UHGV virus genome: UHGV-0203667 | DNA length: 13,326 nt | Source of the DNA: a virus | Strand: one strand, 5' to 3' | Shown here: in pieces, positions 1 through 13,326 of the stretch | Position numbering within the stretch: position 1 is the first letter of the stretch | Layout of the letters: the number at the start of each line of letters is the position of its first letter | The notes under the pieces: generated by a model | What the model was told of the DNA's origin: nothing | The model's input: only the letters and a program-made list of their open reading frames with translations | The model's database searches: none | Program-made: the position numbers and the translations under genes

Positions 1-531
1 ATGTTATTTCAGAAAGATAAAGAATCAGAAAACAAAAAGCTTTTTAAAGCAATAGTAAAAATGTTCTTTAAGGAGGCCGCACAGTTCGGGGCTACTATCC
101 TGCTTATTGGCCCTTGGGCAATGGCTATCTTCTTTTACCCTGCTACCTTATTTATTGGCAGTAGCAAGTTCGGCAATGGACCGTTTCATGTGGATACTGG
201 TTTTATAGATTTTCTCCTGATCCGCCCTATAAATGCTGTTCTCAATGCTTTCTACTTCCCCACTAGTCTGGAAGGGTGGGCGGTCACCTGGGGCGTTTTA
301 GGCTTAGCATTTGCAATATGGGTGATCGGCTTTTGGTGGAATGCGATCTGTGTTCTCCTTGATATCGATGGCGGAAAAAGCCGTAGAAGCGGTGGTAGCA
401 GTGGAGCAGGTATTTATGCACATGTAGGTACCAGGGGAGCTAGTGTTACCGCAGGTACCCGATTCGCTGGCGGCTGGCTGAGCATAGGCAAACGCGGCGT
501 TAGTTGGAGAAAAAGCAAAAAACTGTTCTGA
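1..531 (+). CDS. Predicted membrane protein with two hydrophobic segments and a Gly/Ser/Arg-rich basic C-terminal tail; possibly truncated at the window edge
   Basis: ORF of 176 aa starting at base 1; hydrophobic stretches (ATILLIGPWAMAIFFYPATLFIG; WAVTWGVLGLAFAIWVIGFWWNAICVLL); tail GGKSRRSGGSSGAGIY...; followed directly by an intrinsic terminator. No family recognised. Confidence 0.5.
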   Translation: MLFQKDKESENKKLFKAIVKMFFKEAAQFGATILLIGPWAMAIFFYPATLFIGSSKFGNGPFHVDTGFIDFLLIRPINAVLNAFYFPTSLEGWAVTWGVLGLAFAIWVIGFWWNAICVLLDIDGGKSRRSGGSSGAGIYAHVGTRGASVTAGTRFAGGWLSIGKRGVSWRKSKKLF

Positions 532-539
532 CCTACCAG

Positions 540-565
540 GGGGCCATCACGGCCCCTTTTTATTT
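540..565 (+). terminator. Rho-independent terminator: GGGGCC / atcac / GGCCCC followed by TTTTTATTT
   Basis: Perfect 6-bp GC stem (540-545 / 551-556), 5-nt loop, T-tract 557-565, 9 nt after the stop codon of the 1-531 ORF. Confidence 0.75.
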
Positions 566-578
566 ATCCCTCAATTAA

Positions 579-611
579 CCCCTATTTATCCCCTATTTAA
601 TGCCTATTTAT
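579..611. repeat. Three tandem 11-bp repeats (CCCCTATTTAT / CCCCTATTTAA / TGCCTATTTAT), helical-phase AT-rich array
   Basis: Read directly: units at 579-589, 590-600, 601-611, immediately downstream of the terminator. Confidence 0.55.
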
Positions 612-691
612 TGATTTAATCCGTTTTATGTCACAACCGCCCGGTTGACAGAGTAATAGAGAGGGTGTAACCCTTTTTCGTAATACTAATA

Positions 692-707
692 AAATCAATA
701 AGTTAGC
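692..707. repeat. 16-bp exact direct repeat AAATCAATAAGTTAGC, copy 1 (copy 2 at 8424-8439); contains an IHF-consensus-like WATCAANNNNTTR
   Basis: Identical 16-mer at both places; flanks also align with an indel (TAATACTAATA-AAATCAATAAGTTAGC vs TAATATTGTGATCTAAATCAATAAGTTAGC). Confidence 0.6.
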
Positions 708-1446
708 TTAATAAGCCTTTTCTCTATTTTTGTCAAATTTAACATACCCTAAAAAACTGCAAAATCTGGCTGCAAGATTATCTGCAGCTGGATTTCTTAC
801 ACCTCATTTTGTGGTATCACCCTGGCTAGTTTGTGCATAAATTGAACAGTTTTTAACATTTCCTCCTCACCTGGTAACCACACAAAAAGCTAAAAACGAG
901 GCACAGATAATCTTAGAGGCCTGTTTTCTTGTTATCACTCTGGAAACGCCGTAGAAGTGATTTTGATGAAAGATGACCTACCCTATTACACCCCTATTTT
1001 TTGTTATCACAATTGCATCCTGTGCGGTGTATGGCTATGTACTGAAAGCGGTTTTGGGTGTGGGTGTCAGAAATATCCATTAGCGGTATTAATACCTGTC
1101 AGATGTTCGTCTGAGGTGCCAGGCAGGCGCTCCCCTACCTCCCTTTTTTCTTCTAACAATTCTCAAATATCCGACCACTACTGACCACGTTGCTATTATG
1201 TTAATTCTTAAGCTTTGCTGTATGTTGTGCACATTATTTATTCAGGTGGCTGTACGTAAATTCTGTGCCCACTGATCATGATTTTTAAATCAGATTTTGT
1301 AGTGCGCTTTATTAGTGTAGATAAGATCTATTATGTTAAATGCAATTTTCCCAACCCTTCAAATCAATGACTTACGTGTAAGCATGCACTAACACCCCAC
1401 ACAGCACATTAGCCGTATAGATGGCTATACCCCACATATTTGATTG

Positions 1447-1469
1447 TTTTGTAGTCATTCCCCTGATCA
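1447..1469. repeat. Imperfect ~23-bp direct repeat TTTTG(T/C)AGTCATT..C..TGAT, copy 1 (copy 2 at 2177-2201); shares the CAGTCAT core also seen at 1974 and 2161
   Basis: Manual alignment of 1447-1469 with 2177-2201; CAGTCATACT occurs exactly twice (1972-1981 and 2161-2170). Confidence 0.4.
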
Positions 1470-2016
1470 TTTAACCAGTATAGCTTGTTATCTGCAGACC
1501 ACAAAATAGGAATTTACATCTGATTAACATAATCTGTTAGCATGATCACTATTACCCACACAACAATAACCCCATGTAAGCCTCTTCAGGCAATTTATCG
1601 GCGTGTTGGTGTGAACAGTCTTTCATGTTCTTTATGAATGCATTGTCCTGTGTGAGGGAAGGATGGACTGCCTCAGGGGCCATACTTATGATGCCCGGTC
1701 AACATAGCTATTGATAAAATCAACGGGTGTTGATCTACATATTTCCCACACATGAGAGGAAATCAGAGCAAAGAGAGAGGAGAGAGGTTTGTTAGTCACA
1801 TATGGTGATTTGAGCTCATCTCAAACCTTCTACGAAGGCCTTTGCTAGTCAAAATAGGTCAATTGACGGCTAATACAGAGTAAAAAATCAGATGCAATCA
1901 CTCCCCACCTGTTGGGATTAACGGCCCCGAGTCAAGGCCTATGCAACGAGGGTATTTCCTACAACCCCTTTCAGTCATACTCAGGCACCACACCCCGGTA
2001 AATATTACCCTACTAC

Positions 2017-2328
2017 CCCGGAAGATTTCTCCGCACTACCTGTAAAATATTTTTACTACTAACACCCTCGAGACGAGGGCTATTTGCACGAGTTTAACGC
2101 TCTCGGGAAGAGCTATAGGCGATTCTACCTGTGAAGAATTTTCACACCTGTGTGTTTATACAGTCATACTTTCCTGTTTTGCAGTCATTGCACCCATGAT
2201 ACACAGCCTCTAACTACTGAAGATTTCTCACTACTTAACCACCATACCTACCCACACCCCTGAGAATTTCTCACCACTACTACCGAAGATTTCTCACTAG
2301 TACCCCTGAGAATTTCTCACTCTAATAG
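2017..2328 (+). repeat. Iteron-like array: six copies of core GA(A/G)(A/G)ATTTCTCAC, the last three exactly 23 bp apart
   Basis: Cores at 2021-2033 (degenerate), 2133-2145 (degenerate, GAAGAATTTTCAC), 2219-2231, 2262-2274, 2285-2297, 2308-2320; each preceded by a C-rich tract (CCCC/CTACC). TGAGAATTTCTCA is itself a 6-bp inverted repeat. Confidence 0.6.
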
Positions 2329-2438
2329 ATAAAGGAATAGATCAATAAAAAGACCTCCCCCCTAACCCCCAGGGGGAATGGGGAGGGATCAGAGAGTGGG
2401 GAAGGTTTTCTAAGGGAAAAGCTTAACCCACAAATGAA

Positions 2439-2467
2439 AGCCTAAAGAGCATGAGCGACTCTTTAGG
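2439..2467. other. Strong hairpin: 10-bp stem GCCTAAAGAG / CTCTTTAGGC with 9-nt loop
   Basis: Perfect complementarity read from sequence; no flanking U-tract on the plus strand. Confidence 0.4.
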
Positions 2468-2839
2468 CAATCTGTGTGGGGTGACAATGTATTCCATACA
2501 TGACACGTCACCCAATTGTGTGTGGGGAGCGTAGTGCTATAGCACGTAGCTTTATAGTGTGGAGTCCGGATAAGAGACTTCTGTTTCCAATCCGGACCGT
2601 TTAAGCGAGTGGTTTCTCGCGCGGGTGCACGCACACATATATAAAGGATACACTCATAAATCGAAAATAAGGCCCCTAAATGGCCTTCTGGCTGCATTAA
2701 CCTGTGTGAGTAGTGCAATTGCATTACCTGACCTCTAAATCGCGTTAGAATCGATTTTAGAGCGCTTAAGGCAAAAGTGCTCTCCCTCCCTTGTGGACTT
2801 GCTTGTACCTATAGCACACCTAAATGATAATAATTCTCA

Positions 2840-2868
2840 TTGACAATTGGTTGACAATATGATAAGAT
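2840..2868 (+). promoter_or_regulatory. Candidate sigma70 promoter P0 (TTGACA, 17-bp spacer, TAAGAT) within a tandem TTGACAAT duplication
   Basis: -35 TTGACA at 2840-2845, -10 TAAGAT at 2863-2868; a second TTGACAAT at 2851-2858; sits about 35 nt upstream of the RBS of the small ORF at 2904. Confidence 0.35.
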
Positions 2869-2903
2869 TATAAATAGGGGGAGAAACAGATCCGGAGGTC
2901 AAT

Positions 2904-3053
2904 GTGGAAATTACAGATGTAATAGCGATCATCAACCTGGCTGTACTGTGGTGCGGTGTTGCCTACATAGCCGGAGTAACTGCAATCGACAACCTTGAAG
3001 AAAAAATGATAGATAAATACAAAAAGATTGTTGACAATCTCGCAAATAGCTGA
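2904..3053 (+). CDS. Small hydrophobic peptide (49 aa, GTG start), predicted single transmembrane helix with charged C-terminus
   Basis: SD GGAGG at 2894-2898, 5-nt spacing to GTG 2904; translation (V/M)EITDVIAIINLAVLWCGVAYIAGVTAIDNLEEKMIDKYKKIVDNLANS; stop TGA 3051-3053. Below the length cutoff of the ORF track. Overlapped by the minus-strand ORF 2868-3317, judged spurious. Confidence 0.4.
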   Translation: MEITDVIAIINLAVLWCGVAYIAGVTAIDNLEEKMIDKYKKIVDNLANS

Positions 3054-3059
3054 TAAAAT
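3031..3059 (+). promoter_or_regulatory. Near-consensus sigma70 promoter P1: TTGACA, 17-bp spacer, TAAAAT, with an A-rich upstream tract
   Basis: -35 at 3031-3036, -10 at 3054-3059; spacer contains the recurrent motif TCTCGCAAA (3038-3046); A-rich 3001-3026 resembles an UP element. Confidence 0.6.
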
Positions 3060-3065
3060 ATAAAT

Positions 3066-3141
3066 CATAGGGTAATTCTCATCATAGTGAATTTCCTTAA
3101 ACAAAAATGCGGGGGCTTGTCTTAAGTTCCCGTTTCTTTTT
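3066..3141 (+). ncRNA. Candidate ~75-nt small RNA or attenuated leader transcript, from P1 to the hairpin/U-tract at 3110-3141
   Basis: Strong promoter followed about 45 nt downstream by a 9-bp stem CGGGGGCUU / AAGUUCCCG (two G-U pairs) and UUUCUUUUU; no ORF in between. Confidence 0.3.
3110..3141 (+). terminator. Intrinsic terminator/attenuator in the leader upstream of the 3183 gene (also the likely 3' end of the small-peptide transcript)
   Basis: Stem 3110-3118 / 3124-3132, loop GUCUU, U-tract 3133-3141. Confidence 0.5.
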
Positions 3142-3182
3142 AACCGTATATCATTCTGATTCGAATTATAGGAGGCCCCGTT

Positions 3183-3398
3183 ATGGCAAGCAACGGACCG
3201 ACTAGCCCCCTGGTTAGCTGGACTACTGATGAGATCGTCGAAAACGTGCTCAGCGGCAAGTTTTATAAAAATTCTGTTTATGCTTTTATCCGTCGTAATA
3301 AAGGAAAATATCCACACATTGAAGCGGCAATTTTAGAACTGAACCGTCTTCGCCTTGAGCGTGAGCTGGCTAAATACACCAACAACATTGATAAATAA
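3183..3398 (+). CDS. Small hypothetical protein (71 aa), possibly regulatory
   Basis: SD AGGAGG at 3170-3175 with 7-nt spacing to ATG 3183; stop TAA 3396-3398; first gene after P1 and the attenuator. Confidence 0.75.
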   Translation: MASNGPTSPLVSWTTDEIVENVLSGKFYKNSVYAFIRRNKGKYPHIEAAILELNRLRLERELAKYTNNIDK

Positions 3399-3411
3399 TT
3401 ATGGGGGAACT

Positions 3412-4308
3412 ATGGCAAGTAATTACGGGGAGGTTTTTAATCCCCATTTCGAACGCCTCATTCAGTACACTTTTGATAAACCAGTAGCAACAACAATTGC
3501 TAATAAAAAGACTGGAAAAACAAAAGAGCGATTTAATTTAGACCTGATAGAGGTAACAATTTATGGAAAAATGGCAGGTTTTCATTTAAACGGGCAAGAA
3601 ATATTTATCTCAGAGCAGACCTTAGCAAAAATATGTGGTGTGAGTGATAGAAAAATCATCGAATCTATCAAAACTCTGGAAAATGCCGGGCTTATTTCTA
3701 AAGAAAGCCGGAAAGGTATGTCTAACATTTACAAACTGTTAATTACTCCTTCTCAAATCTGCAAAATGTGTGATGAACAGAAGATAGAACCAATGAGTAA
3801 TGCAGGTGGTGAAGATAAACAGCCTCAGGAAGCCCCAAAACAAGCCACACAGCAAGCTAAAAAGGCTAAAGTAGTGCAATTGCCTACCCAAGACACTAAA
3901 GCGCCTCAAATTAACGCTGTTAGTGACAAGCCACGCCGGGGCCGTCCTGTGAAAGATGTAACCGATGGGGGCTGGATTGTCCTGGGTGAGAGTGAAGCTA
4001 AAGATAGAATGCGCTCACTGTGGGAAAGCAAATACAAAGGTTTAAATAAACGTTGCCCGATCCGTTTGTCAAAGATTCAGGAGGATTTTTACACCACAGA
4101 GGAGGTAATACGCCATAAAGGCAATAGAGACGGTGAAATCTGGAAACCGGAAGAATACTGGCATTTAACCAGACCTGTTTTTATTTTTGCAAATAAACTT
4201 ATTGGGATGGGATTTGAAATATTGTTAGATCAAACTTACGGAGATTATCCTGAAATATTGTGGAGAAATGTTAGAAAGAATAAAAAAGGCATTTTAGAGT
4301 TTAGATAA
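3412..4308 (+). CDS. Winged-HTH DNA-binding protein with AT-hook-like linker (KPRRGRPVK) and a C-terminal domain of unknown function; putative replication initiator or regulator
   Basis: ATG 3412 after a GGGGG SD (the track's upstream TTG at 3355 has no RBS); N-terminal wHTH-like segment FISEQTLAKICGVSDRKIIESIKTLENAGLISKE; low-complexity linker EDKQPQEAPKQATQQAKKAK; 299 aa. Confidence 0.8.
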   Translation: MASNYGEVFNPHFERLIQYTFDKPVATTIANKKTGKTKERFNLDLIEVTIYGKMAGFHLNGQEIFISEQTLAKICGVSDRKIIESIKTLENAGLISKESRKGMSNIYKLLITPSQICKMCDEQKIEPMSNAGGEDKQPQEAPKQATQQAKKAKVVQLPTQDTKAPQINAVSDKPRRGRPVKDVTDGGWIVLGESEAKDRMRSLWESKYKGLNKRCPIRLSKIQEDFYTTEEVIRHKGNRDGEIWKPEEYWHLTRPVFIFANKLIGMGFEILLDQTYGDYPEILWRNVRKNKKGILEFR

Positions 4309-4349
4309 AAATACTGATAATCTTATTTTTTTGTTTAAGGAAATTTAAA

Positions 4350-4496
4350 ATGTATGGCGATTTTGATTATTACCTGGAAAAGGAAAAATATTTTGAAGAT
4401 GAACTATCACAACATTTTTCATATTGGGAAGAATATTGTGGTTGGTTAGCTGAAGATCCAGCAGATGAAGAAAATGATTCTGACATCCCTTATTAA
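4350..4496 (+). CDS. Small acidic, aromatic-rich protein (48 aa), hypothetical
   Basis: SD AAGGAA at 4337-4342 with 7-nt spacing to ATG 4350; MYGDFDYYLEKEKYFEDELSQHFSYWEEYCGWLAEDPADEENDSDIPY; below the track cutoff. Confidence 0.4.
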   Translation: MYGDFDYYLEKEKYFEDELSQHFSYWEEYCGWLAEDPADEENDSDIPY

Positions 4497-4587
4497 TATC
4501 CCCAAATAAACCAACAAACTACTAAATAAACTAATTACTAGAACTAGATTGATTGCCCTGATCTTTTAAACGTTCGGAGAATTAATC

Positions 4588-5076
4588 ATGTTCAAATCTG
4601 ATCTTTCTGATTCCCAATTTGAAAAACTGGTAGCACTGCAGAAATATCTCCCCAGTGATGATCAACCAACACGACAGGCCAAGCACTTATTAGTCGAGGG
4701 CTTTACCCCTGAATTCGTTGCGGAATACACAGGCGTTAAACTTGAGAAAGTCCAAAAACTATATGAAGAATCCTGGAATCCACGGTGTCGAGTTCCCCTC
4801 AGTGTCTATAACGAAATAGATAGAGATAGAAATGTCTTCGAAGATCGCCGCCGCAAATCTCTTTTAATGTGGAATTGCGGGATGAATATTGAAGAGATAG
4901 CAAAAGAATTAAAAGTAACCTGCTTTCATGTCTGGGGCTTGTTGAGCGACCTCCTGCCACGTAAGGAGCTTAATCAACGTTTGCCTAAGCCCGGTAGTCG
5001 TGCTTATCGCGAATTTATATTCATCTACCGCCGCCATAGAAATAAAGTCCAGAAAGCAATGGCCCAGAAAGCCTGA
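4588..5076 (+). CDS. Putative DNA-binding protein with two HTH-like segments (162 aa)
   Basis: SD GGAGA at 4576-4580, ATG 4588; HTH-like stretches LLVEGFTPEFVAEYTGVKLEKVQKLY and MWNCGMNIEEIAKELKVTCFHVWGLL; basic C-terminus. Confidence 0.75.
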   Translation: MFKSDLSDSQFEKLVALQKYLPSDDQPTRQAKHLLVEGFTPEFVAEYTGVKLEKVQKLYEESWNPRCRVPLSVYNEIDRDRNVFEDRRRKSLLMWNCGMNIEEIAKELKVTCFHVWGLLSDLLPRKELNQRLPKPGSRAYREFIFIYRRHRNKVQKAMAQKA

Positions 5077-5116
5077 GTTTTATCTCTTCGATTTATTTAT
5101 TTTCGACTCACTTTAA

Positions 5117-5159
5117 CCCCTTCCGGGGCTTGACGTTGTCAAGGCCGCAGCTATGCGGC
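5117..5159 (+). promoter_or_regulatory. Three consecutive hairpins (CCCC-ttcc-GGGG; CTTGAC-gtt-GTCAAG; GCCGCA-gcta-TGCGGC), copy 1 of a conserved structured element (copy 2 at 12577-12622)
   Basis: Read from sequence; lies 20 nt upstream of ATG 5180 in the 4588/5180 intergenic region; copy 2 keeps both stems through compensatory changes. Confidence 0.5.
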
Positions 5160-5179
5160 TCTAATTTAAGGAATTCCAA

Positions 5180-5623
5180 ATGTCTCAAATCGCTAAATTA
5201 TTATCCCAGGTTATCAAAGCTATCGACGCTGAAGATTCAAAAGTTCGCCAGGATCTTTTAGATGGCAAGTTTACCAACACCCTGGCATTTACCCGTGACA
5301 AAGAGCACTTCTTAAAGCACAGACATCACGCTTTCGCTGAATGCAAGTCCGCTAATGGTGATGTTTTCTATGTCGATTTGGTGGTTATGGCATGTAGATT
5401 GTGGATGATTCAGGACCTTATGCGCCAACACGGTGATGATCCTTTTATCAGCATGTGGAACAGCGCCCAGGATGGCTTTGTGATTGCTGCCTTATCCAAA
5501 TCCATGATTGAGGCAGAAGGCGCAAGCCTTCAGAACATGGCAGATCTCTTTGAAATAAGCGTAGGAATGATGCAGACCATGCTGCAGGCGGTGAAGCCTC
5601 TCAAACTGGTTAATCTTGCTTAA
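5180..5623 (+). CDS. Hypothetical protein (147 aa), first gene of the tape-measure operon
   Basis: SD AAGGAA at 5168-5173 with 6-nt spacing to ATG 5180; predicted largely helical; no family recognised. Confidence 0.8.
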   Translation: MSQIAKLLSQVIKAIDAEDSKVRQDLLDGKFTNTLAFTRDKEHFLKHRHHAFAECKSANGDVFYVDLVVMACRLWMIQDLMRQHGDDPFISMWNSAQDGFVIAALSKSMIEAEGASLQNMADLFEISVGMMQTMLQAVKPLKLVNLA

Positions 5624-5683
5624 GCTATTGATAAATAAGCACTCCCCATTTTTTGGGGGGTGCATCAATGAGAGGGTATGCCT

Positions 5684-6118
5684 ATGAATATTGAAGAAAT
5701 GATAGTTGAATTCGAAGAGGGTGATTTCCTGGAAGAAGGGGAGTTTAAATACTCCCGTTTTAAACAGGCGTTATTTAGCAGCGATGATAAACCCCACGTT
5801 AGTGATCTTAACGACGATGATTTATGTCGCTGGGTATGCACCCGCTTATATGAAGATGGAAAGTATACAGGCCAAAACTTTCCAAATCTCTATTTCAAAG
5901 CACAAACATTTGAGGAAGGGCAAAGAGTGAAAAACCTGGTCGATAAAATGCTGTCAGCCGGATATTTGCATAAAGAATTATTAAATCCTAAAGCTGAAAG
6001 CAAGCGCCATTATATTTTTGTGTGGTCTGTGGGGGATAAGTGCCCACTGCATGGGAGTCCTTCCAGGACCTTAGCTAAAGCTAAGCCCGTTGGGTCTGTT
6101 AAGCGTAAAGGCAAATGA
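5684..6118 (+). CDS. Hypothetical acidic protein (144 aa), positioned like a tail assembly chaperone
   Basis: GAGAGGG SD with 7-nt spacing to ATG 5684 (the track start at 5678 is only 1 nt from the SD); acidic N-terminus; ends with basic tail KRKGK; 2 genes upstream of the tape measure gene. Confidence 0.7.
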   Translation: MNIEEMIVEFEEGDFLEEGEFKYSRFKQALFSSDDKPHVSDLNDDDLCRWVCTRLYEDGKYTGQNFPNLYFKAQTFEEGQRVKNLVDKMLSAGYLHKELLNPKAESKRHYIFVWSVGDKCPLHGSPSRTLAKAKPVGSVKRKGK

Positions 6119-6119
6119 T

Positions 6120-6305
6120 ATGAATACCTACGAAAAGATTTATCAAAAATTAAAAAGTGATAACAATGCTCCCGTCATCAAGGGCGGGGCTTCTTCCTCT
6201 GGTGACCTCTCAATCGAAGAGCTTGCGGAGAAATATAATATTGATAAAGAGGCCCTGAAAAGGGCTATTTCATTATCAAAATCTTTAAGACAGGGCGAGG
6301 TGTAA
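6120..6305 (+). CDS. Small hypothetical protein (61 aa) immediately upstream of the tape measure gene
   Basis: ATG 6120 directly after the stop of the previous gene (TGA 6116-6118); its frame is open from 6075, overlapping the previous gene's 3' end; stop 6303-6305, 3 nt before the tape-measure ATG. Confidence 0.55.
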   Translation: MNTYEKIYQKLKSDNNAPVIKGGASSSGDLSIEELAEKYNIDKEALKRAISLSKSLRQGEV

Positions 6306-6308
6306 GAG

Positions 6309-8411
6309 ATGGCAATGAAGGAAGTCGCCAGACTAACAAACGTTATTTACTGGGACTCTGATAAATCCTCCTGGCGAAAAGAAGTTAAGCGCTTGGAGGA
6401 TTATAAAAAATCCTGGAAGAAAGCTACCGACGATATAGCTAAAGCGGATTTTAAATCTAATCAGGCTGTGCTCAGAACACAAAGAACACGCGCTAAGGTG
6501 GAAGAGCAGATCGCCAGAGCACAGAAGAAACAACGTGCTCAGGCTGTCAGCCGTCTGACCGGGGGCAATAATCCGGAGCTCTCCTCTATGCGCAAGTTCT
6601 ATCAGCAGCAAGCCAGAGAGGCCGCCAGACAACAAAAACTGTTAGATCGTAGTGTTGGAGATGTTCAGCACAGAAAAGCACGTGTAGGGGCCAACAGTGC
6701 ACGAATCAGCAGCATGTTTGATGGCTCCCTGGTTGCTCAGTTCCAATCCAGAATTCAAAGAGTTAATGCTGATTATGCTAAAGGGGCTATTAACCTGCAG
6801 ACCTATAATCAGAAAATGGCCCGACTCAGATCTGAAATGAAGATGGCAACAGCAGAGGCCGGAAAATTTCAGAGCAAACTGGATAGAGTTGCGATCACAG
6901 GATCTAAGCTGCATGACAACCTGGGGAAACTAAATTCTACTTTAGGCAAGATAGCTATTGGCCTTACTGCCGCTGGCTGGGGTGTTCAGCGTGCTGTTAG
7001 TGGTGCTATGGGTAGCCTTGCAGATCGCAACAGTGCCTACTTCGGTTTGATGGCACAGAACAAGGATGATAAAGCCAAGACTGATCAGCAGATGGCCTAC
7101 GTCAAAAGAATCTCTTATGACTACGGGATGGATCAGCGTGAGACCGAAGGCGGTTTTATGCGCTTTGCTGCAGCCACACCGAGCATAGAAGAGAAAGATA
7201 AACAGGCTCTTTTTGAGGCTATGGCTATTAAAGGTCGCTCAGTGGGTGCTACCGCAGACCAACAGAACAGGGCTATCGTTGCACTAGGGCAAATATATAG
7301 CAAGGGCGGTCGGGTGTATGCGGAAGAGCTTAAGGGCCAACTTTCTGAAGCCCTGGCAGGTTCTCAGGTAGATTTCACTAAGGCCGCTATCGATGCCGGA
7401 GTCATCAAGAAAGAGGAAGAATTTAATAAAGCCCTTGAAGATGGCAAGATCACCATGGATAAGCTTCTCCCTTCTTTGGTGAAAATCTGGTCTGCAGCCA
7501 AGAATACGAAAGCCTTTGCTGAATCCATGAAACAGCCAGAAGTAGCAATGCAGCGCATGAAAAACAGCTTTAACGAGCTGGCGATTCAGTTTATGGGTGT
7601 TGTGGATCCTGCCGATGGCGTTGTTAGCTTATCTGAATCTCTGATCTCCATCTTCGAAGACCTCACCACTGATATGGACGGCAGCGGGAGCGCGGCAAAA
7701 CAGTTTGGTGAAGCAGTCGGTGCTGCCATGCGGGAGATCATGTATTGGGTAGGCTTCGCTAAGGGATATATCGAGGTCAAGGCTAAAGAGTTCGGCATGA
7801 CCGGATCAGAGGTTGGCGAGCTTATCGGGAAACTAGTAGTCGGCTTAGCTGGTCTGAAAGTTATTACCACACTGCTTTCCCCTCTAACCGGATTTGTTTC
7901 ACTTGTCACCCAACTGATAGCCTTGTTAGGTAAAATCCCTGGTATGAGCAAGCTTATGGCATCTGCCTCAGGTGGAACGGCAACAGGAGCAGCAGTTATC
8001 AGTGCAGGCTCTAACGCTGAAAGAAGCTTCATTGATGGCAAGACGCAGGAAATGAGTAAGGAGAACTCAAAACAGGGTGCTTTGTTTGAGCTGGGAAGAT
8101 TTGTCAGCAATGCTGGCGCACTGTTCACACCTGGCGGTGATACTGGTCCTTTGTTCGATCAGGTCAAAGGCTGGTTTAATAAAGGGCCAACATTGACAGT
8201 AGACACTGGCATCAGACCAACACCAACGGGTGGCATAGCTATCCAGAATGGTGGATATCAACCAGTCCAAGTAAATGTAGCCCCACAAGGTGAGATTTCC
8301 GGCAAATGGGAGATAACCATCGATGAGGGGGGAATTGCCAGGGTGATCCAGAAGGAAGTCAGCGATCAGTTGGATTGGAAAGCCACACAGGAATCTAACC
8401 AGCTTTTCTAA
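6309..8411 (+). CDS. Phage tail tape measure protein (700 aa)
   Basis: SD GAGGTG with 7-nt spacing; charged coiled-coil-like N-terminus; motif ALGQIYSKGGRVYAEELKGQLSEALAGSQ, recalled as the conserved tape-measure motif; central hydrophobic segment (LIGKLVVGLAGLKVITTLLSPLTGFVSLVTQLIALLG); Gly-rich C-terminal part. Confidence 0.8.
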   Translation: MAMKEVARLTNVIYWDSDKSSWRKEVKRLEDYKKSWKKATDDIAKADFKSNQAVLRTQRTRAKVEEQIARAQKKQRAQAVSRLTGGNNPELSSMRKFYQQQAREAARQQKLLDRSVGDVQHRKARVGANSARISSMFDGSLVAQFQSRIQRVNADYAKGAINLQTYNQKMARLRSEMKMATAEAGKFQSKLDRVAITGSKLHDNLGKLNSTLGKIAIGLTAAGWGVQRAVSGAMGSLADRNSAYFGLMAQNKDDKAKTDQQMAYVKRISYDYGMDQRETEGGFMRFAAATPSIEEKDKQALFEAMAIKGRSVGATADQQNRAIVALGQIYSKGGRVYAEELKGQLSEALAGSQVDFTKAAIDAGVIKKEEEFNKALEDGKITMDKLLPSLVKIWSAAKNTKAFAESMKQPEVAMQRMKNSFNELAIQFMGVVDPADGVVSLSESLISIFEDLTTDMDGSGSAAKQFGEAVGAAMREIMYWVGFAKGYIEVKAKEFGMTGSEVGELIGKLVVGLAGLKVITTLLSPLTGFVSLVTQLIALLGKIPGMSKLMASASGGTATGAAVISAGSNAERSFIDGKTQEMSKENSKQGALFELGRFVSNAGALFTPGGDTGPLFDQVKGWFNKGPTLTVDTGIRPTPTGGIAIQNGGYQPVQVNVAPQGEISGKWEITIDEGGIARVIQKEVSDQLDWKATQESNQLF

Positions 8412-8423
8412 TATTGTGATCTA

Positions 8424-8439
8424 AATCAATAAGTTAGCC
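8424..8439. repeat. 16-bp direct repeat AAATCAATAAGTTAGC, copy 2 (copy 1 at 692-707)
   Basis: Exact match to 692-707; begins 13 nt after the tape-measure stop codon. Confidence 0.6.
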
Positions 8440-8462
8440 TGACCGGATAAACTCCAGGCAAG

Positions 8463-8493
8463 AAAAAAGCCCCTAAGTGTTAACAAAGGGGCT
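8463..8493 (-). terminator. Intrinsic terminator for the leftward head operon (AGCCCCT / 12-nt loop / AGGGGCT followed by UUUUUU on the minus strand)
   Basis: 7-bp stem 8468-8474 / 8487-8493; A6 on the plus strand (8463-8468) gives a U-tract on the minus-strand RNA; the plus-strand side lacks a U-tract. Confidence 0.55.
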
Positions 8494-8523
8494 CTTCTCC
8501 GGTATCCTTTTGATGCGGGGCAA

Positions 8524-8571
8524 AACCTGCTAACAAAAATCAACCTCTCGCGAGACTAATGTTAGCAGGTT
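8524..8571. repeat. Perfect 12-bp inverted repeat AACCTGCTAACA ... TGTTAGCAGGTT with 24-nt spacer containing palindrome TCTCGCGAGA
   Basis: Arms 8524-8535 and 8560-8571 are exact reverse complements; inner palindrome 8546-8555; the spacer carries a degenerate copy of the AAATCAAC(C/T)TCTCGC motif. Confidence 0.55.
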
Positions 8572-8913
8572 GCCGGAAGGTAAGTCAACTCCGGCCTATA
8601 AACCTTAAAGCGACTATAAAATTGCCCCGCCAATTGTGATGATCCGACCTTTGAGGCGGGTCCGGTGCCCAGGGGGTGCAGTGATGCACAAACCAGGCAA
8701 CGATAAACAGGCTAACAGTGATAGCGGCGCTCTCTCAGCGCACTAAATCCTAACCAGTCCGGGAAAGAGGCTGGCTCTATCGACCGCTCATGCACGGGAC
8801 AATGCATACCTGATAAAGGATTCTCACAAGGGACCAATCGCGAGAAAAGAAGTGGAAAGGGGCTGATTTGTGGTGTATCACTACGGCCTCAAAAGACACC
8901 CTATTGCCTTTTT

Positions 8914-9372
8914 TCAGCCTCTCCCCACATTTGACCAGTATTTGATTGCACCGATCAAATCATCATAGTGGCGCATTGCATCATTGAAGCCTTTATAGCT
9001 TGCCCATTGTGGGGAAACCTTGTTGTTGCTGAATTGCCCACTAATCAGGATAGTCTCCAGAATGTCGGCGTATCGCTTGCCAATTCGCTTCCTGACGGCC
9101 TCAGAGCTCCCACCCTTTACGATTGCATTAATCAGGGCTTTTGTGTGTCTCAGGCTCTCATAGAGCATTGCAGCGTGGGCAGATTCCATAAAGGAGCGCT
9201 TAGGCAGATCACCCCACCCCTCAGAATGAATTGCTGCCAATGTGGCGTAATTCAGGCCGCTATAGTGTTTCCCGTCATCCCAGCCAACCGCTACACCTTC
9301 CATCTGTGAGAGCTCTTTATGCAGCTTATCCATCATGCGCTTGTCTATGGTGCAACGGACTTTCGGACTCAT
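8914..9372 (-). CDS. Hypothetical phage virion morphogenesis / head-tail joining protein (152 aa); family not verified
   Basis: Last gene of the leftward structural operon; start ATG overlaps the stop of the upstream gene (ATGA), suggesting translational coupling. Confidence 0.7.
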   Translation of the reverse strand: MSPKVRCTIDKRMMDKLHKELSQMEGVAVGWDDGKHYSGLNYATLAAIHSEGWGDLPKRSFMESAHAAMLYESLRHTKALINAIVKGGSSEAVRKRIGKRYADILETILISGQFSNNKVSPQWASYKGFNDAMRHYDDLIGAIKYWSNVGRG

Positions 9373-10181
9373 TTGTTGATCTCCGTGATGTCATCAAGCA
9401 ACATGTTGGCCTTATCAATCATCGTTTCGTGGAACTCATTCGACACGACAGACTTATCACCTGCTGCAATCTTTCCCGCTGCCTCTCCCTGTGCATATTC
9501 CCCGCGATGCTTAGCCCTGGTTGATTTCGTAGCAGCATTGCCAGCGTTACTACCCTCTTTAGCACTGTTAACAGCACCCTTTTGCTGTGTTTTATTCACC
9601 TTCTTACTGTTAGTGAAAACTCCGGCATTTTCGACCATCTTCACCTTGAAGGTGCGGAATTCTTCAAAAGTGCAATCAATAGTGATGCAGTCGCCAGAGG
9701 AAGAGCTACGCTTAACTTCACATTTCGTCATGATGAAGTTCTCAAGGAGTCCGACATCTTCACCCACCAGGCTGATAATCTGGCGCTTGTCTCTCATTTC
9801 CATAAGTGCCTGAACAGCGGCAGCAGGGCGCATAGATTCACGGGGATTATCTGGATCAGTGTTCCGGTCGATGTAGTTCTCTTTCCGGATGATATGAGGG
9901 GAAGAGGTAATAATACCCGTAAAGCTGACAGATTTATCTTTAATGACGGCATGGTCTGACATGGTGGTGCCATCCTCGACCGCATAGCTCGATTTCTCAA
10001 CAGGGAACGAATAGCTGACATCAGAGATAGAGTCAAAGAAGATAGCCACATTATCGGTATAGTTGAAGCCATCCATCATATTTTTGTTTTGTGAATATCC
10101 CCCACACATAACAGTGAATGCAGGAGATCTCGACTCAGCTTGTTTTGCAGCTGTCAGAGCATCACTAGCCATATTAAACAT
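9369..10181 (-). CDS. Hypothetical phage structural protein (270 aa) with Lys/Ala/Gly-rich low-complexity C-terminal half
   Basis: In the head operon downstream of the major capsid gene; GGAGG lies 1 nt before ATG 10181 and 10 nt before the in-frame ATG 10172, so the true start may be 10172. Confidence 0.7.
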   Translation of the reverse strand: MFNMASDALTAAKQAESRSPAFTVMCGGYSQNKNMMDGFNYTDNVAIFFDSISDVSYSFPVEKSSYAVEDGTTMSDHAVIKDKSVSFTGIITSSPHIIRKENYIDRNTDPDNPRESMRPAAAVQALMEMRDKRQIISLVGEDVGLLENFIMTKCEVKRSSSSGDCITIDCTFEEFRTFKVKMVENAGVFTNSKKVNKTQQKGAVNSAKEGSNAGNAATKSTRAKHRGEYAQGEAAGKIAAGDKSVVSNEFHETMIDKANMLLDDITEINK

Positions 10182-10246
10182 GCCTCCAAATTGAATCTTT
10201 TGGTGGCCCTGTGTGAATTCTGATAAAAAGACAGGGCTATCTATCG

Positions 10247-10498
10247 TTATTTTGCAAAACGATTATGCGCATTCAGGGCTTTTTTGCGGTCCTGGGCTTG
10301 TTTGCGTGCAATAAAATGTTCGAAAGTCTCGGCCCAGGTGCATTTATTATATTCACGGTATTTGTGCATAGCCTGGCGGCTAACTTGATAGACAGATGCG
10401 AATGTGGAGATACGCAGGAATTCCGGCAGATCCTCGTCATCGATATGGATAATATCAAAAGGCACGTCATCACGGTCGCCGTATAAAACAATTTTCAT
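10247..10498 (-). CDS. Small hypothetical protein (83 aa) with an HTH-like stretch (LRISTFASVYQVSRQAMHKY)
   Basis: ATG 10498 with SD GAGGTG at 5-nt spacing (the track's GTG at 10507 lacks an RBS); lies between the major capsid gene and the 270-aa gene. Confidence 0.6.
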   Translation of the reverse strand: MKIVLYGDRDDVPFDIIHIDDEDLPEFLRISTFASVYQVSRQAMHKYREYNKCTWAETFEHFIARKQAQDRKKALNAHNRFAK

Positions 10499-10534
10499 AA
10501 AAGACACCTCAAAAACTTAAGACGGGGATAACAA

Positions 10535-10584
10535 AAAAGGGAGGAGGGAAAGACCTACCCACAATCTCCCACCTCTTCCCTTTT
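10535..10584 (-). terminator. Terminator-like or attenuator hairpin just downstream of the major capsid gene (G/C-rich imperfect stem with T-tracts on both sides)
   Basis: GGGAGGAGG (10539-10547) pairs with CCTCTTCCC (10572-10580), with one non-Watson-Crick position; T-runs flank it on both strands; large loop, so probably partial termination only. Confidence 0.3.
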
Positions 10585-10587
10585 CTT

Positions 10588-11631
10588 TTATTTAGCCTTG
10601 GCTTTTGCCAGAGCAGCGGCGGCGGTGTTTTTAACACTCACTTTAACCACCACCTCGGGCATCATATTCATAAATGCGTATGAGCTCTCGCAAAAGACCT
10701 CGCGCTTAGCTCTTGAATCTTGCATATACATGAAAGCTTCACGTGCAGCGCCGTTTGCCAGCTGCAGATTGCGAGCGCAAGGGCCAAAAAATTGAGTATA
10801 AACACCCATATCGCCCAGTGCATAAGGCTGGAATTGTGGGACCAGATAAGCAGTATTCTCTGGCAGACTATCCATTTGCACCACACGCAGGGCTAAGCCC
10901 GGAATGCGGAAGGTCGGGAAGCCCGGCAGAATATCCTCAGGGAACATCAGACCTTTGTCGGTAATGTTCTGATTGCCGAACAACAGCACTTTACGAAGCA
11001 GCTCGTCAGTCTGAATTGCAGCAAAGAGTTCAGCACGGCAGAACAGGGTGAAACCACGCAGGGCACGAACGACACCACGCTGTTTAACCTTGCTCAGTGC
11101 AACCAGGTCCTGCAGCTGTTTAAGGATATCTTGAGCTAGATCCACTTCAGAGGTGGACTGTTCTACTCCCAGCAGTTCGCACACATTCAGTTCTTTACCC
11201 TTGGTGAGGATAATTTTGTTCTCAAAGAGAGCAAGCTGGCGTGCTTCTTCGTGGGTCTGGCGTAAGCCTTCGCCAAGCTGAATAACACGACGAGCGGTTA
11301 CAGACTCTAAATTCTCTTCGGAATCTTTGCCCGGAACACGGATACCTTGCCAGTCTGACGGGAATATGGCCGAGCTGGCGGCTGTAAAGGCCATGTCGCC
11401 CGTGCCCGTTTCACGCTCATCTGCGGTAATGGTAGCCATCTGTTCACCGTAGCGCGGATACTGACCGAAAGCGGTTTGTTTCACCCTGCGAACTTTGTCG
11501 TACTCAAATTTGAACGTCGAAGAATAGACGGTAGTATTAAACACGTTCATTGCTGAAATAATCTGGTTATCCAGCGGGATATCTTTAATCAGACCACACA
11601 GATCGCGAACTTCGAATTCTTTCTTAGCCAT
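10588..11631 (-). CDS. Major capsid protein, lambda gpE-like (347 aa)
   Basis: Perfect SD AAGGAGG 6 nt upstream of ATG 11631 (the track's longer N-terminal extension is discounted); size about 340 aa; segments recalled as resembling lambda gpE (RRVIQLGEGLRQTHEEARQLA ~ RRRIIMQNMRDEELAIAQVEE; C-terminal REAFMYMQDS...PEVVVKV ~ AREFTMIQSAP...DEFVSV); preceded by a decoration-sized gene. Confidence 0.7.
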   Translation of the reverse strand: MAKKEFEVRDLCGLIKDIPLDNQIISAMNVFNTTVYSSTFKFEYDKVRRVKQTAFGQYPRYGEQMATITADERETGTGDMAFTAASSAIFPSDWQGIRVPGKDSEENLESVTARRVIQLGEGLRQTHEEARQLALFENKIILTKGKELNVCELLGVEQSTSEVDLAQDILKQLQDLVALSKVKQRGVVRALRGFTLFCRAELFAAIQTDELLRKVLLFGNQNITDKGLMFPEDILPGFPTFRIPGLALRVVQMDSLPENTAYLVPQFQPYALGDMGVYTQFFGPCARNLQLANGAAREAFMYMQDSRAKREVFCESSYAFMNMMPEVVVKVSVKNTAAAALAKAKAK

Positions 11632-11642
11632 TTTCAACCTCC

Positions 11643-11978
11643 TTATTGTGCAACACGCAAATCGCCATTGCTGGCAGCAACAACAGCGGCTAAGCCGTCT
11701 TTGTCCACATAGGCCGGATTGATGTAGCAACCTTTGTTCGCAACAACGATAAAGGAATCACCAACTTCAGCACGTTCTACAACCAGCAGCGGAGTTTTAT
11801 CGGTGTGCGTTGCTTTAACGAAGGTCTCAACCTCGCCAGCCTCAGTCACCACAACAACAGTGCCAGCCGGAATCTCAGCCTTAACTTTGTTTTTAACTTC
11901 AACGTCGCGAATACTAAATTGCTCATCTGCGGCGTATGAAATGATGTGTCCGCGTGTGCGGATAGTCATATCTCTCAT
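11643..11978 (-). CDS. Head decoration-like protein (111 aa), first gene of the head operon
   Basis: SD AGGTGA 5 nt upstream of ATG 11978; size and position immediately upstream of the major capsid gene match the lambda gpD arrangement; no sequence-level similarity to gpD confirmed. Confidence 0.6.
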   Translation of the reverse strand: MRDMTIRTRGHIISYAADEQFSIRDVEVKNKVKAEIPAGTVVVVTEAGEVETFVKATHTDKTPLLVVERAEVGDSFIVVANKGCYINPAYVDKDGLAAVVAASNGDLRVAQ

Positions 11979-12458
11979 TTGATCACCTGCGATTTAAATT
12001 AACTCCCCTCAAAGGGCTCAGGTATAACCTCTCAAACCACGACAGGCTCGGGCCGAAAAGTTATGCCGGAAATCTAAAGGGGGATTGATATAAGGAGAGG
12101 GAGATAGCCCCGCACCGTCCAAGCGGGGGCTATTCCATATGGGGAAAACCAACAACAGTTGGCTGATAGTTCACTGCATGGTTACGGTTGCTAGAGAGCA
12201 CTATCACGAAAGGCACTCCCCCGAATCAGTTCAGGCTGCGGTCACATCAGCGGGGAAATACCTTTCGGGATAGCTACCCACACCGAAAACCCGCAAAAGA
12301 AAACTGTGTGGATAACTAGCCCAATAGGAGAATTAATCGACCACTCTAAGATGATCAGGGTAGTGTTATTTATAAGGCGGCACCGCTACCTGGTCGCCGT
12401 TACTTTGGAGGAAAATACGGCAAATCACCTTCGCTAAATGATTCACGGTATACTGTAT

Positions 12459-12487
12459 ATTATATCAGTATTTACTCACATTGTCAA
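12459..12487 (-). promoter_or_regulatory. Consensus sigma70 promoter P2 for the leftward head operon: TTGACA, 17-bp spacer, TATAAT on the minus strand
   Basis: Minus-strand -35 is the complement of 12482-12487 and -10 the complement of 12459-12464; 22 of 29 positions identical to P1 (3031-3059); leaves a ~470-nt untranslated leader before ATG 11978. Confidence 0.6.
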
Positions 12488-12576
12488 CACCCTGATTATA
12501 TAAATTCTAATAATTAGCGTAGTAACGGTATTTTCAGACCTCTATCAATCCCATCAATACGTCACCTCATCCCTGA

Positions 12577-12622
12577 CCTGCTTTGCAGGCTTGGCACACA
12601 GCCAAGGTCGCAGCTATGCGAC
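12577..12622 (+). promoter_or_regulatory. Three-hairpin element copy 2 (CCTGC-ttt-GCAGG; CTTGGC-acaca-GCCAAG; GTCGCA-gcta-TGCGAC)
   Basis: Same three-stem architecture as 5117-5159; stem 2 differs by A>G paired with T>C, stem 3 by C>T paired with G>A; loop GCTA conserved. Confidence 0.5.
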
Positions 12623-12629
12623 TCCTATC

Positions 12630-12660
12630 ATCTATCATAACTTTTTCATTCGTGATAGAT
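12630..12660. promoter_or_regulatory. 8-bp inverted repeat ATCTATCA / 15-nt spacer / TGATAGAT, candidate operator
   Basis: Arms 12630-12637 and 12653-12660; lies between the three-hairpin element and the small rightward genes; ATCAAT repeats nearby (12544-12558, 12671-12682). Confidence 0.3.
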
Positions 12661-12757
12661 ATCTTTTGATCAATATCAATGTTTTCCTGGGATTTGCCCG
12701 GCTATAGTTCGAATCAAGGAAGGGGAGCATTGATAGCACCAAAACCGAACAAACAAA

Positions 12758-12772
12758 TCAACTTCTCGCAAA
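12758..12772 (+). promoter_or_regulatory. Conserved leader motif TCAACTTCTCGCAAA directly 5' of the SD of the 12784 gene (identical copy at 13301-13315)
   Basis: 15-nt exact repeat; both copies are followed by an SD-like sequence (AAAGGTGA / AAAGGGG); the TCTCGCAAA core also lies in the P1 spacer (3038-3046). Confidence 0.45.
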
Positions 12773-12783
12773 AGGTGATAGTT

Positions 12784-12906
12784 ATGGGTATCAAGAACAG
12801 TGCCAGCGCATGGCAAAAGGCCAGGTTTCATCACCCACACATTGTTAAGGCAATTGAGGTGGTTGGAGTGTTAGCCCTGATGTTAGCTCTGTGTGTGGAG
12901 GTGTGA
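12784..12906 (+). CDS. Small peptide (40 aa) with hydrophobic C-terminal segment, predicted membrane peptide
   Basis: SD AGGTGA at 12772-12777, 6-nt spacing to ATG 12784; MGIKNSASAWQKARFHHPHIVKAIEVVGVLALMLALCVEV; the track ORF starts earlier (12679) but has no RBS there. Confidence 0.45.
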   Translation: MGIKNSASAWQKARFHHPHIVKAIEVVGVLALMLALCVEV

Positions 12907-13008
12907 GATGGGCAAAGGAGGCAAAGCATTTTTTAATAGGTCTGGCTATCCTGGATGTTCTACTAATCATGATTGAGCGGAGTTTATGAACAGCATTGAG
13001 AGGAGTTT

Positions 13009-13269: not shown

Positions 13270-13300
13270 TAGGAACAGTCCAACAGGTTATTAACTAAAT

Positions 13301-13315
13301 TCAACTTCTCGCAAA
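13301..13315 (+). promoter_or_regulatory. Second copy of leader motif TCAACTTCTCGCAAA followed by SD-like AAAGGGG; downstream gene start lies beyond the window
   Basis: Exact 15-nt match to 12758-12772, 32 nt after the stop of the 13009 gene. Confidence 0.4.
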
Positions 13316-13326
13316 GGGGTACCGTC

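Follow-up and report, generated by a model that had tools for sequence, protein, structure and literature searches.

As far as their sequences tell, the promoters P1 and P2 of the DNA analysed here are near-consensus, very strong extended −10 sigma-70 promoters of the ordinary type, and their likeness suggests common descent together with selection for the highest promoter strength rather than an operator in common. Our preferred reading, which we judge rather probable, is that they belong to a set of three related strong promoters with no operator in common, that P1 gives rise to an antisense RNA directed at the start of a small gene, ORF48, and that P2 serves the capsid operon via a leader, probably under LexA. 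The DNA is referred to below as the window, meaning the whole stretch that was analysed, at its full length of 13,326 nucleotides.

A circular plasmid and its three promoters

The window is a complete circular E. coli plasmid of about 13.3 kb. Circular plasmids akin to it, 13.2–13.7 kb in size, were found in only 7 of 5,426 complete E. coli genomes, so the plasmid is rare in this species, and in two further PLSDB records. All of these circular relatives are 91–93% identical to the window and collinear with it, their starts being rotated. In addition, base 1 of the window opens the ATG of a membrane-protein gene, the ribosome-binding region of which occupies the other end (13298–13326). Given the rotated starts of the relatives and this split gene, P1 and P2 do not face inward from the two ends of an element, as the initial annotation had it; the ends are an artefact of linearisation. 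On the circle the two promoters stand back to back at a distance of 3.9 kb, which holds the maintenance and non-coding region, and they are convergent across the other arc of 9.4 kb. The promoters, and the gene that overlaps one of them, are as follows:

2840–2868, plus strand: promoter P0, TTGACAATTGGTTGACAATATGATAAGAT, of the form TTGACAAT-N12-TGATAAGAT; 10 of 12 consensus positions, with TG; same design as the other two
2904–3053, plus strand: ORF49, a small hydrophobic protein with a GTG start and a GGAGG ribosome-binding site; annotated in relatives as a 150-nt coding sequence
3031–3059, plus strand: promoter P1, TTGACA-17-TAAAAT; 11 of 12 positions, with TG; A-rich stretch upstream
12459–12487, minus strand: promoter P2, TTGACA-17-TATAAT; 12 of 12 positions, with TG; AT-rich, UP-element-like stretch upstream

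The 29-mers of P1 (3031–3059, plus strand) and P2 (12487–12459, minus strand) are present exactly as first quoted, and their description as consensus promoters is borne out by a scan of both strands of the window, in which P2 and P1 are the two top sigma-70 matches. The −35 hexamer is matched at all six positions in P0, P1 and P2, the spacer is 17 bp in each, with a TG one base before the −10, and the −10 hexamer matches TATAAT at six of six positions in P2, five in P1 and four in P0. Two sites with at least 11 of 12 matches and a TG were observed where 0.013 would be expected, and a pair of such sites was seen in none of 300 dinucleotide shuffles; promoter-like sites overall show no excess over shuffled sequence in the whole-window scan. 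The octamer TTGACAAT occurs in exactly four copies in the window, all within P0, P1 and P2, a number reached by 2 of 200 shuffles. P0 would drive ORF49, and its transcript is predicted to reach also the terminator at 3109–3141 discussed below.

For comparison, we used a main family of 24 relatives, gathered from complete genomes, PLSDB, metagenomes and public assemblies, and two more distant lineages beyond it, the second (L147/L148 and L129), with a capsid protein 79% identical, and the third (L145/L146). Within the main family P1 is present in every relative that covers the region, P2 in every relative and P0 in most. All three promoters of the second lineage read TTGACAAT-N12-TGATAAAnT. The third lineage has three promoters at the same positions and of the same strength, with unrelated spacers that have no motif in common, and two of the three are without the TG.

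Of the 29 positions of P1 and P2, 22 had been counted as shared; we find 20 of 29 in register, or 24 of 30 columns if one compensated offset of 1 nt is introduced. The shared spacer AAATA(G)CTGATA is real. How far the likeness reaches outside the sigma-70 elements depends on the alignment: at the 14 positions concerned, compared with random 14-mers of the window, it stands with one indel on each side (10 of 14, P = 0.005) and fails without gaps (6 of 14, P = 0.12), and is thus real but modest. P0, P1 and P2 follow a common pattern, TTGACAAT-N12-TGATAnnAT and then (A/T)ATA, both in the main family and in the second lineage, and the variants also resemble one another across promoters, P1b, P2b and the P0 and P1 of the second lineage all starting with TTGACAATTTGA. 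Since this pattern is kept across the two groups, a common origin, as had been proposed, is a reasonable and plausible explanation, whereas the shared operator proposed along with it finds no support.

Two other sources of the likeness were considered and rejected. Descent of P2 from the coding end of an ORF49-like gene was ruled out, only 12 codons being open upstream of P2. Mimicry of helper-phage promoters was ruled out by scans of viral contigs with TTGACAAT-N11-CTGATANAAT and TTGACAATTTGA-N8-TGATANAAT, which returned only scattered single matches. The second and stricter of these scans found TTGACAATTTGA-N8-TGATAnAAT as single copies in 28 unrelated low-GC viral contigs, which makes it look like a generic strong-promoter design.

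The spacers of P1 and P2 vary, and they do so independently. P1 carries the spacer alleles CTCGCAAATAG or TTGACGAATGT and P2 carries GTGAGTAAATA, TTGAGAGAATA or CTGAGAGAATA, which differ from each other at 5–6 of 11 positions; the 21 family members with both promoters show the P1/P2 combinations a/a (3), a/b (1), b/a (5), b/b or b/c (10) and c/a (2). We found no linkage of P1 to P2 spacer alleles, or of the spacers to the HTH_7 protein, the plasmid protein examined here as a candidate regulator, whose gene is divergent from P2 and whose helix-turn-helix region is invariant across the main family. This behaviour tells against a single regulator, be it the HTH_7 protein, another plasmid protein or a protein of the host or of a helper phage, that binds a common operator in P1, P2 (and P0) and switches both convergent modules. 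We regard such a regulator as unlikely, even though the invariance of TTGACAAT, of the A of TGATA and of the ATA after the −10, in three promoters and two lineages, exceeds what sigma-70 needs, and the spacers are more alike than random 14-mers once one offset is allowed (the P value of 0.005 above). Many variants also have a second, loose TTGA..AAT element just past the −35, and a repressor would be expected for promoters of such strength ahead of structural genes. On the other hand, the distance from AATA to TGATA is 0, 2 and 1 nt in P0, P1 and P2, respectively, no dyad is common to both promoters, the motif is lost in the third lineage though the promoters are kept, and the design recurs in the unrelated viral contigs mentioned above.

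The P1 spacer is moreover under coding constraint: it makes up the final seven sense codons and the stop of ORF49, with the TG of the extended −10 inside the TGA stop codon, and its two main alleles stay in frame by a two-base synonymous change, CTC to TTG, both encoding Leu. We note that TGATAGAT is enriched in the window (31 matches against 13 expected); as an operator it was set aside, the copy adjacent to P1 being coding and the positions relative to P1 and P2 being different. What follows the two promoters also differs, a terminated RNA of 76 nt being predicted for P1 and a leader of 474 nt for P2. In sum, with spacers that vary and assort independently, an invariant HTH_7 region and, as described below, a LexA-like box at P2 only, the co-regulation of the two modules through a shared operator is not borne out.

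The predicted P1 RNA and the start of ORF48

The region downstream of P1 contains a predicted short RNA, the first genes beyond it and the sequence to which the RNA is complementary:

3066–3141, plus strand: P1 RNA (predicted, about 76 nt, start inferred), with a 5' hairpin bearing the anti-Shine-Dalgarno UUCCUU, the unpaired seed AAACAAAAAU, a terminator hairpin and a U-tract
3183–3398, plus strand: p71, the first gene past the terminator
probably 3412–4308, plus strand: rep, the replication initiator, HTH_36, phage O-like
4323–4372, plus strand: putative target of the P1 RNA, taking in the Shine-Dalgarno AAGGAA, the start codon (ATG, 4350) and further early codons of ORF48; assigned from the inverted repeat, the duplex energy and covariation
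4350–4496, plus strand: ORF48, an acidic 48-aa protein ending in NDSDIPY; the first gene after rep

Transcription from P1 would start near 3066 and run into a conserved intrinsic terminator, a hairpin (3109–3133) followed by TTTCTTTTT, which starts 50 nt past the P1 −10 and thus ahead of the first gene (3183). From this start and the end of the terminator at 3141 follows the length of about 76 nt; the existence of the RNA, its start site and its termination are sequence-based predictions. Its predicted fold (−22 kcal/mol, z = −4.1) consists of the 5' hairpin, then a single-stranded A-rich stretch, then the hairpin of the terminator. In the alleles C, D and E the terminator hairpin is either kept via compensatory changes or replaced outright, and the U-tract is retained. 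The third lineage has neither a terminator nor a small RNA past its P1 equivalent. The P1 RNA has no match in Rfam, searched with the whole window (E ≤ 1) and with 2980–3200 (E ≤ 10). A scan for promoters between 3141 and 3183 found none, and no separate promoter for p71 and rep was found. As no other promoter stands ahead of these two genes, read-through of the terminator, by transcripts from both P0 and P1, presumably supplies p71 and Rep.

A repeat search revealed an inverted repeat of 25 nt, in which 3083–3107 is 88% complementary to 4328–4352 (TTTTTGTTTAAGGAAATTTAAAATG), 1.2 kb away on the same strand of the window. The duplex predicted between the P1 RNA and 4323–4372 extends over about 40 nt and has an energy of −32.2 kcal/mol, compared with −12.2 ± 2.7 kcal/mol for shuffled seeds (best of 500, −22.7) and −25.2 kcal/mol for the next-best site on the plus strand. 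Among 12 start regions of the plus strand that of ORF48 is the best, by 5 kcal/mol, the duplexes with the start regions of ORF48, rep and p71 reaching −30.1, −17.7 and −15.2 kcal/mol, respectively. Other partners were rejected. The start region of p146 gives −25 kcal/mol in the window and only about −13 kcal/mol in L003, L004, L007 and L135, where the RNA is the same and the upstream allele differs. Base pairing to the P2 operon or leader, by which the P1 RNA would link the two modules, stays at background level (best duplex, −22.8 kcal/mol). The initial 95 nt of the P0 transcript and of the P2 transcript yielded no complementary partner.

The pairing is accompanied by covariation between the two sites. 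The seed, which adjoins the anti-Shine-Dalgarno UUCCUU, occurs as the alleles A (AAACAAAAA), B (UAGUAGACUG) and E (AAUUAACUG), and in allele C a wholly different RNA of 96 nt faces a different small ORF. In every one of the 19 plasmids with these alleles, seed and target correspond (A in 7, B in 9, C in 2 and E in 1). Taken over A, B and E, pairing in the duplex of 19 pairs amounts to 95.8%, and 7 of the 19 pairs are changed on both sides; no shuffle out of 500 attained these values, and a shift of the partners by 1–3 columns makes the signal collapse. With only four seed alleles, in plasmids that are closely related, this covariation reflects few independent events. Linkage is not the explanation of the match, since the interval of 1.1–1.6 kb between RNA and target is a mosaic, with segments common to different seed types, and recombination has taken place inside it: L007 (allele A) and L004/L135 (allele B) have the same first and last thirds of the interval. 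Recombination is also free between the P1 spacer allele and the seed allele, although a mere 50 nt or so separate them.

The same arrangement recurs outside the main family, in the second lineage (L147), where the seed finds its best site on the whole plus strand at the start of the small ORF that follows rep. Allele D (L006 and L138) has the RNA and no separate ORF48; the Rep of this type carries an ORF48-like tail, NDSAIPY, fused to its own end, and no convincing target for the allele D RNA was found in these two plasmids.

The two arms of the repeat bracket the p71/rep region, which is the most variable, mosaic part of the plasmid (identity to relatives, 0.62–0.78). This position, together with the association of arm alleles that linkage alone would give to some extent, would suit a repeat that acts as DNA, for example as the boundaries of an exchangeable rep cassette, with P1 as the promoter of the rep operon, a leaky terminator and no regulatory RNA. 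We consider this very improbable: in each of four different allele pairs the two arms are complementary to one another, which linkage cannot produce, and recombination within the interval has left the match intact. In addition, one arm coincides exactly with a ribosome-binding site and start codon and the other lies in the unpaired stretch between promoter and terminator.

In the antisense reading that we prefer, the P1 RNA would, alone or as part of the longer transcript from P0, mask the ribosome-binding site of ORF48 and block its translation, acting either in trans or within read-through transcripts. Two purposes may be envisaged. ORF48 translation could keep transcription going to the tape measure gene, so that the RNA would be an immunity-type switch comparable with c4 and the CI RNA; the stretch after ORF48 has no G in its first 43 nt (4497–4539), and a G-free stretch is the kind of sequence where Rho loads. 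Alternatively, ORF48 could be an accessory factor of replication, the RNA setting copy number and incompatibility; the acidic ORF48 tail ending in IPY, which has a counterpart fused to Rep in one Rep type, resembles the C-terminal tip of SSB. The P1 RNA would in either case be a previously uncatalogued small RNA of the same-strand antisense immunity or copy-control class.

P2, its LexA-type box and its leader

The elements at and downstream of P2 are the following:

12451–12470, no strand assigned: LexA-type box TACTGATATAATATACAGTA, CTG-N10-CAG, from just upstream of the P2 −10 to the predicted start
11979–12452, minus strand: P2 leader, 474 nt, structured, conserved beyond the coding regions
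8914–11978, minus strand: structural operon, presumably driven by P2; assigned from profile matches and the annotation of relatives

The box at P2 scores 7.2 on a provisional heterology-index-type matrix built from E. coli LexA boxes; on this scale the median of known boxes is 6.9, their maximum is 11.7, and 100 shuffles gave 7.8 at best. The box is intact in 14 of 25 members; in 10 others a 1-nt deletion leaves CAT in place of CAG (score 15.4), and L129 lacks it. The equivalent 20-mer at P1, AGCTGATAAAATATAAATCA, has no CAG half-site and scores 17.7, and LexA as the shared operator is ruled out since there is no box at P1. P2 in this plasmid is probably repressed by the host LexA, and would then be induced by DNA damage; we see no mechanistic link from P2 to P1.

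P2 is probably also under some leader-based control. About 95 nt upstream of the promoter are almost invariant in the family, including the UP-element-like AT-rich stretch. Past the promoter lies a short variable region, which forms a 5' hairpin in the window and, judged by eye, could form a similar one in other alleles. The leader, through which P2 would drive the capsid and baseplate genes, has a conservation of 0.97–0.99 over 12201–12400, above that of the coding regions, and a minimum free energy of −169 kcal/mol (z = −4.7 versus shuffles). L129 retains these helices, a few of their pairs having changed in a compensatory way.

A strong intrinsic terminator, formed by a 15-bp hairpin and a U-run, closes the leader of L129 some 65 nt short of the first structural gene, and at this position the window, too, has a hairpin. 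As an intrinsic terminator also stands between P1 and its first gene, and −10-like hexamers can be read by eye in the initially transcribed regions, both promoters might be constitutive and run into terminators, until a processive antiterminator of the lambda Q type, or one supplied by a helper phage, is loaded at or near the promoter and opens the rep and tail genes (P1) and the capsid genes (P2); the two modules would then be co-regulated by termination and not by initiation. We think this quite unlikely. The hairpin in the P2 leader of the window is without a U-tract, searches with Pfam, PHROGs and NCBIfam recognised no Q-like or N-like protein (a factor encoded by the helper would escape them), and this reading would not account for the fact that the P1 RNA is complementary to, and covaries with, the start region of ORF48. 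Antitermination could, however, coexist with the antisense RNA.

Known systems and the plasmid family

The arrangement at P1 resembles the c4 RNA of bacteriophages P1 and P7 and the CI RNA of P4. As in these systems, RNA and target share a strand and an operon, in which the RNA is encoded upstream; as with c4, the RNA would base-pair at the start of a small ORF that precedes the downstream genes, and RNA and target come as matched alleles (A, B, C and E here, in all 19 plasmids). Matched changes of RNA and target make phages P1 and P7 heteroimmune, and P4 is a satellite that can live as a plasmid. In phage P1, c4, icd and ant form one operon, and the C4 antisense RNA is required for full repression of ant (PMC8198154, citing Citron & Schuster 1990). 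Unlike c4, the RNA described here has no sequence or structure match to the Rfam C4 family (RF01695), even at E ≤ 10, and its target ORF follows a replication gene and not an antirepressor, its function in the plasmid being a prediction. In addition, c4 is cut from a longer precursor, whereas the RNA of the plasmid appears to have a consensus promoter and an intrinsic terminator of its own.

A second group for comparison comprises plasmid countertranscripts. CopA/CopT of R1, RNAI of ColE2 and IncB plasmids, and RNAII of pMV158 are short constitutive RNAs with a strong promoter and a terminator at their end, which mask a start region in a replication operon, and allelic pairs of RNA and target define their specificity groups. 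Countertranscripts are made from the opposite strand and overlap their target; the RNA here shares the strand of its putative target and lies 1.2 kb upstream of it, and this target is the ORF after rep, not rep itself or its leader. Elsewhere in the window, 8458–8498 gives a weak match to an Rfam ctRNA (E = 0.24).

The 20-bp CTG-N10-CAG over a strong −10 at P2 is shared with LexA-repressed promoters such as those of colicin operons, phage 186 tum and CTXphi rstA. Unlike those, it is a candidate site, present at P2 only and in 14 of 25 members, with one non-consensus half-site (CTGA). The succession of a strong constitutive promoter and a short terminated RNA upstream of a long operon is also that of lambda PR', 6S RNA and tR', with the differences that no Q-like gene was found in the plasmid and that its short RNA has a covarying complementary target, which 6S RNA does not have.

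The gene content makes the plasmid resemble a phage satellite that lives as a plasmid, with an incomplete set of phage structural genes as judged by sequence. Its plus strand encodes ORF49, p71, the phage O-like replication initiator with its HTH_36 domain, ORF48, four small proteins and a tape measure protein of 700 aa, and the structural operon on the minus strand encodes a 111-aa protein, the major capsid protein (10588–11631), an 86-aa protein, a Dit-like baseplate protein and a neck or tail-completion protein. The satellite reading has its basis in the plasmid's own capsid, tape measure, Dit-like and neck proteins and O-like Rep, combined with the lack of terminase, portal and tail tube; no terminase, portal, tube or lysis genes were recognised in the window. 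Compared with their counterparts in rV5-like myoviruses, its capsid and tape measure proteins reach an identity of only about 25%. A phage collection contained no near-identical DNA and no record similar at the DNA level, a search of viral contigs with the capsid protein gave no relatives, and the GTDB species representatives, searched for the protein or the DNA pattern, contained none outside E. coli. We found no paper on this plasmid family. A review of 2025 cites a single plasmid as a shown phage satellite and considers that many others may exist (PMC12282955).

Tentatively, and as a possibility that we hold less firmly than the promoter and RNA assignments themselves, these plasmids may form an undescribed E. 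coli family of plasmid-borne tailed-phage satellites of 13–15 kb, in which a novel promoter-proximal small RNA, of an origin independent of the C4 family, would set a switch between maintenance and morphogenesis. The interchangeable seed and target alleles (A, B, C and E) would then define types of immunity or incompatibility, in the manner of P1/P7 and P4, and the polymorphic LexA box would tie some variants to SOS. A LexA-type box on P2 would connect the expression of the element to the SOS response, and P1 points to a compact RNA switch, for which the natural allele pairs are ready-made compensatory mutants. If the RNA gates morphogenesis or sets incompatibility, this would explain why such very strong promoters stand before costly genes, and it would offer a handle for finding the helper phage.

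P2 leader and repeated elements around the HTH_7 operon

The leader transcribed from the leftward sigma-70 promoter P2 (11979-12452, minus strand) exceeds the genes in conservation and has a strong secondary structure (z = -4.7). It contains the hairpin GGCGAC-CAGGUAGCGGU-GCCGCC, the loop of which is invariant and the stem of which carries compensatory changes in L129, a member of a more distant lineage. A metagenome search with the CCAGGTAGCGGTG...ATAAATAACACT motif of the leader returned family members only. The leader may function as an RNA element or as a site for packaging or antitermination.

Two kinds of repeated element lie near P2, the operon of the HTH_7 protein and base 1:

12622-12660, holding an inverted pair of TGATAGAT at 12630-12637 (minus) and 12653-12660 (plus)
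12755-12775 and 13298-13318, copies of the 21-nt element (A)A(A/T)TCAACTTCTCGCAAA(A/G)GG

The inverted pair is intergenic, with P2 on one side and the HTH_7 operon on the other, and might serve the HTH_7 protein as an operator; with one mismatch allowed, TGATAGAT is enriched in the window (31 matches versus 13 expected). The 21-nt element precedes two start codons, those of a 40-aa ORF at 12784 and of a 176-aa membrane protein at base 1, and no complementary RNA was found. The 8-mer CTCGCAAA also turns up within this plasmid's P1 spacer and at position 10687. In the gap that separates the two convergent operons, the Rfam family ctRNA_p42d gives a weak match (8458-8498, minus strand; 23.6 bits against a gathering score of 50, E = 0.24), which is probably merely a terminator hairpin.

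A stretch without coding annotation and the tail of ORF48

The 2.3 kb between 560 and 2840 lack coding annotation in any relative, and parts of this stretch (about 700-1700) are 85-97% conserved. The following features, including two LexA-like boxes scored on a heterology-index-type scale built from E. coli LexA boxes, were recorded:

561-611, 11-nt repeats
1461-1480, LexA-like box CCCTGATCATTTAACCAGTA, score 10.8
2146-2165, LexA-like box ACCTGTGTGTTTATACAGTC, score 8.0
2213-2322, four iteron-like repeats of about 22 nt
2356-2378, 2440-2468 and 2669-2687 (-), among several terminator-like hairpins

The stretch is probably the site of the plasmid origin, and perhaps also holds a packaging site or a non-coding RNA. 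Box ACCTGTGTGTTTATACAGTC falls within a weak promoter-like site (2141-2170), and the presence of both boxes varies among relatives.

Similar C-terminal ends occur in three proteins: the acidic product of ORF48, the small gene after rep (NDSDIPY), the divergent Rep of the related plasmid L006 (NDSAIPY), and ORF62 of the C-type module (DDILPY). The observation rests on these loci:

window, 4350-4496 (plus), ORF48
L006, 2183-3094, Rep
L147, 5465-5653

These tails are similar to the C-terminal tip of SSB (DDDIPF), a likeness that would hint at host replisome proteins being recruited. The spacer 3' of ORF48 (4497-4539), 43 nt without G and kept in relatives, is a candidate Rho-loading site separating ORF48 from the downstream genes.

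A rare plasmid family with a satellite-like profile

The window represents one whole circular plasmid from E. coli. Its family is rare, found in 7 of 5,426 complete genomes, with many further members among 13-15 kb contigs in Logan, ENA and JGI; the comparison drew on the window (1-13326), L001-L008 and L130-L149. A literature search on this family found nothing. The 39.6 kb plasmid record NZ_CP043822.1 (H7) matches the window in six places and looks like a head-to-tail trimer of the 13.2 kb unit, whether a genuine multimer or a product of misassembly.

Three lineages are present: the main family, L147/L129 and L145/L146. The most variable parts are the membrane-protein gene (1-531) and the p71/rep module (3100-4300), with identities to relatives of 0.47-0.78, and the Rep types are mosaic, with protein sequences that diverge by as much as 75%. 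Such variability and divergence indicate frequent exchange of modules. Besides an O-like Rep, the plasmid encodes capsid, tape measure, Dit-like and neck proteins, and no gene for a terminase, portal, tube or lysis function was recognised in it; the structural proteins of rV5-like phages are ~25% identical to its own. This gene content makes the plasmid a candidate for a plasmid-borne phage satellite.
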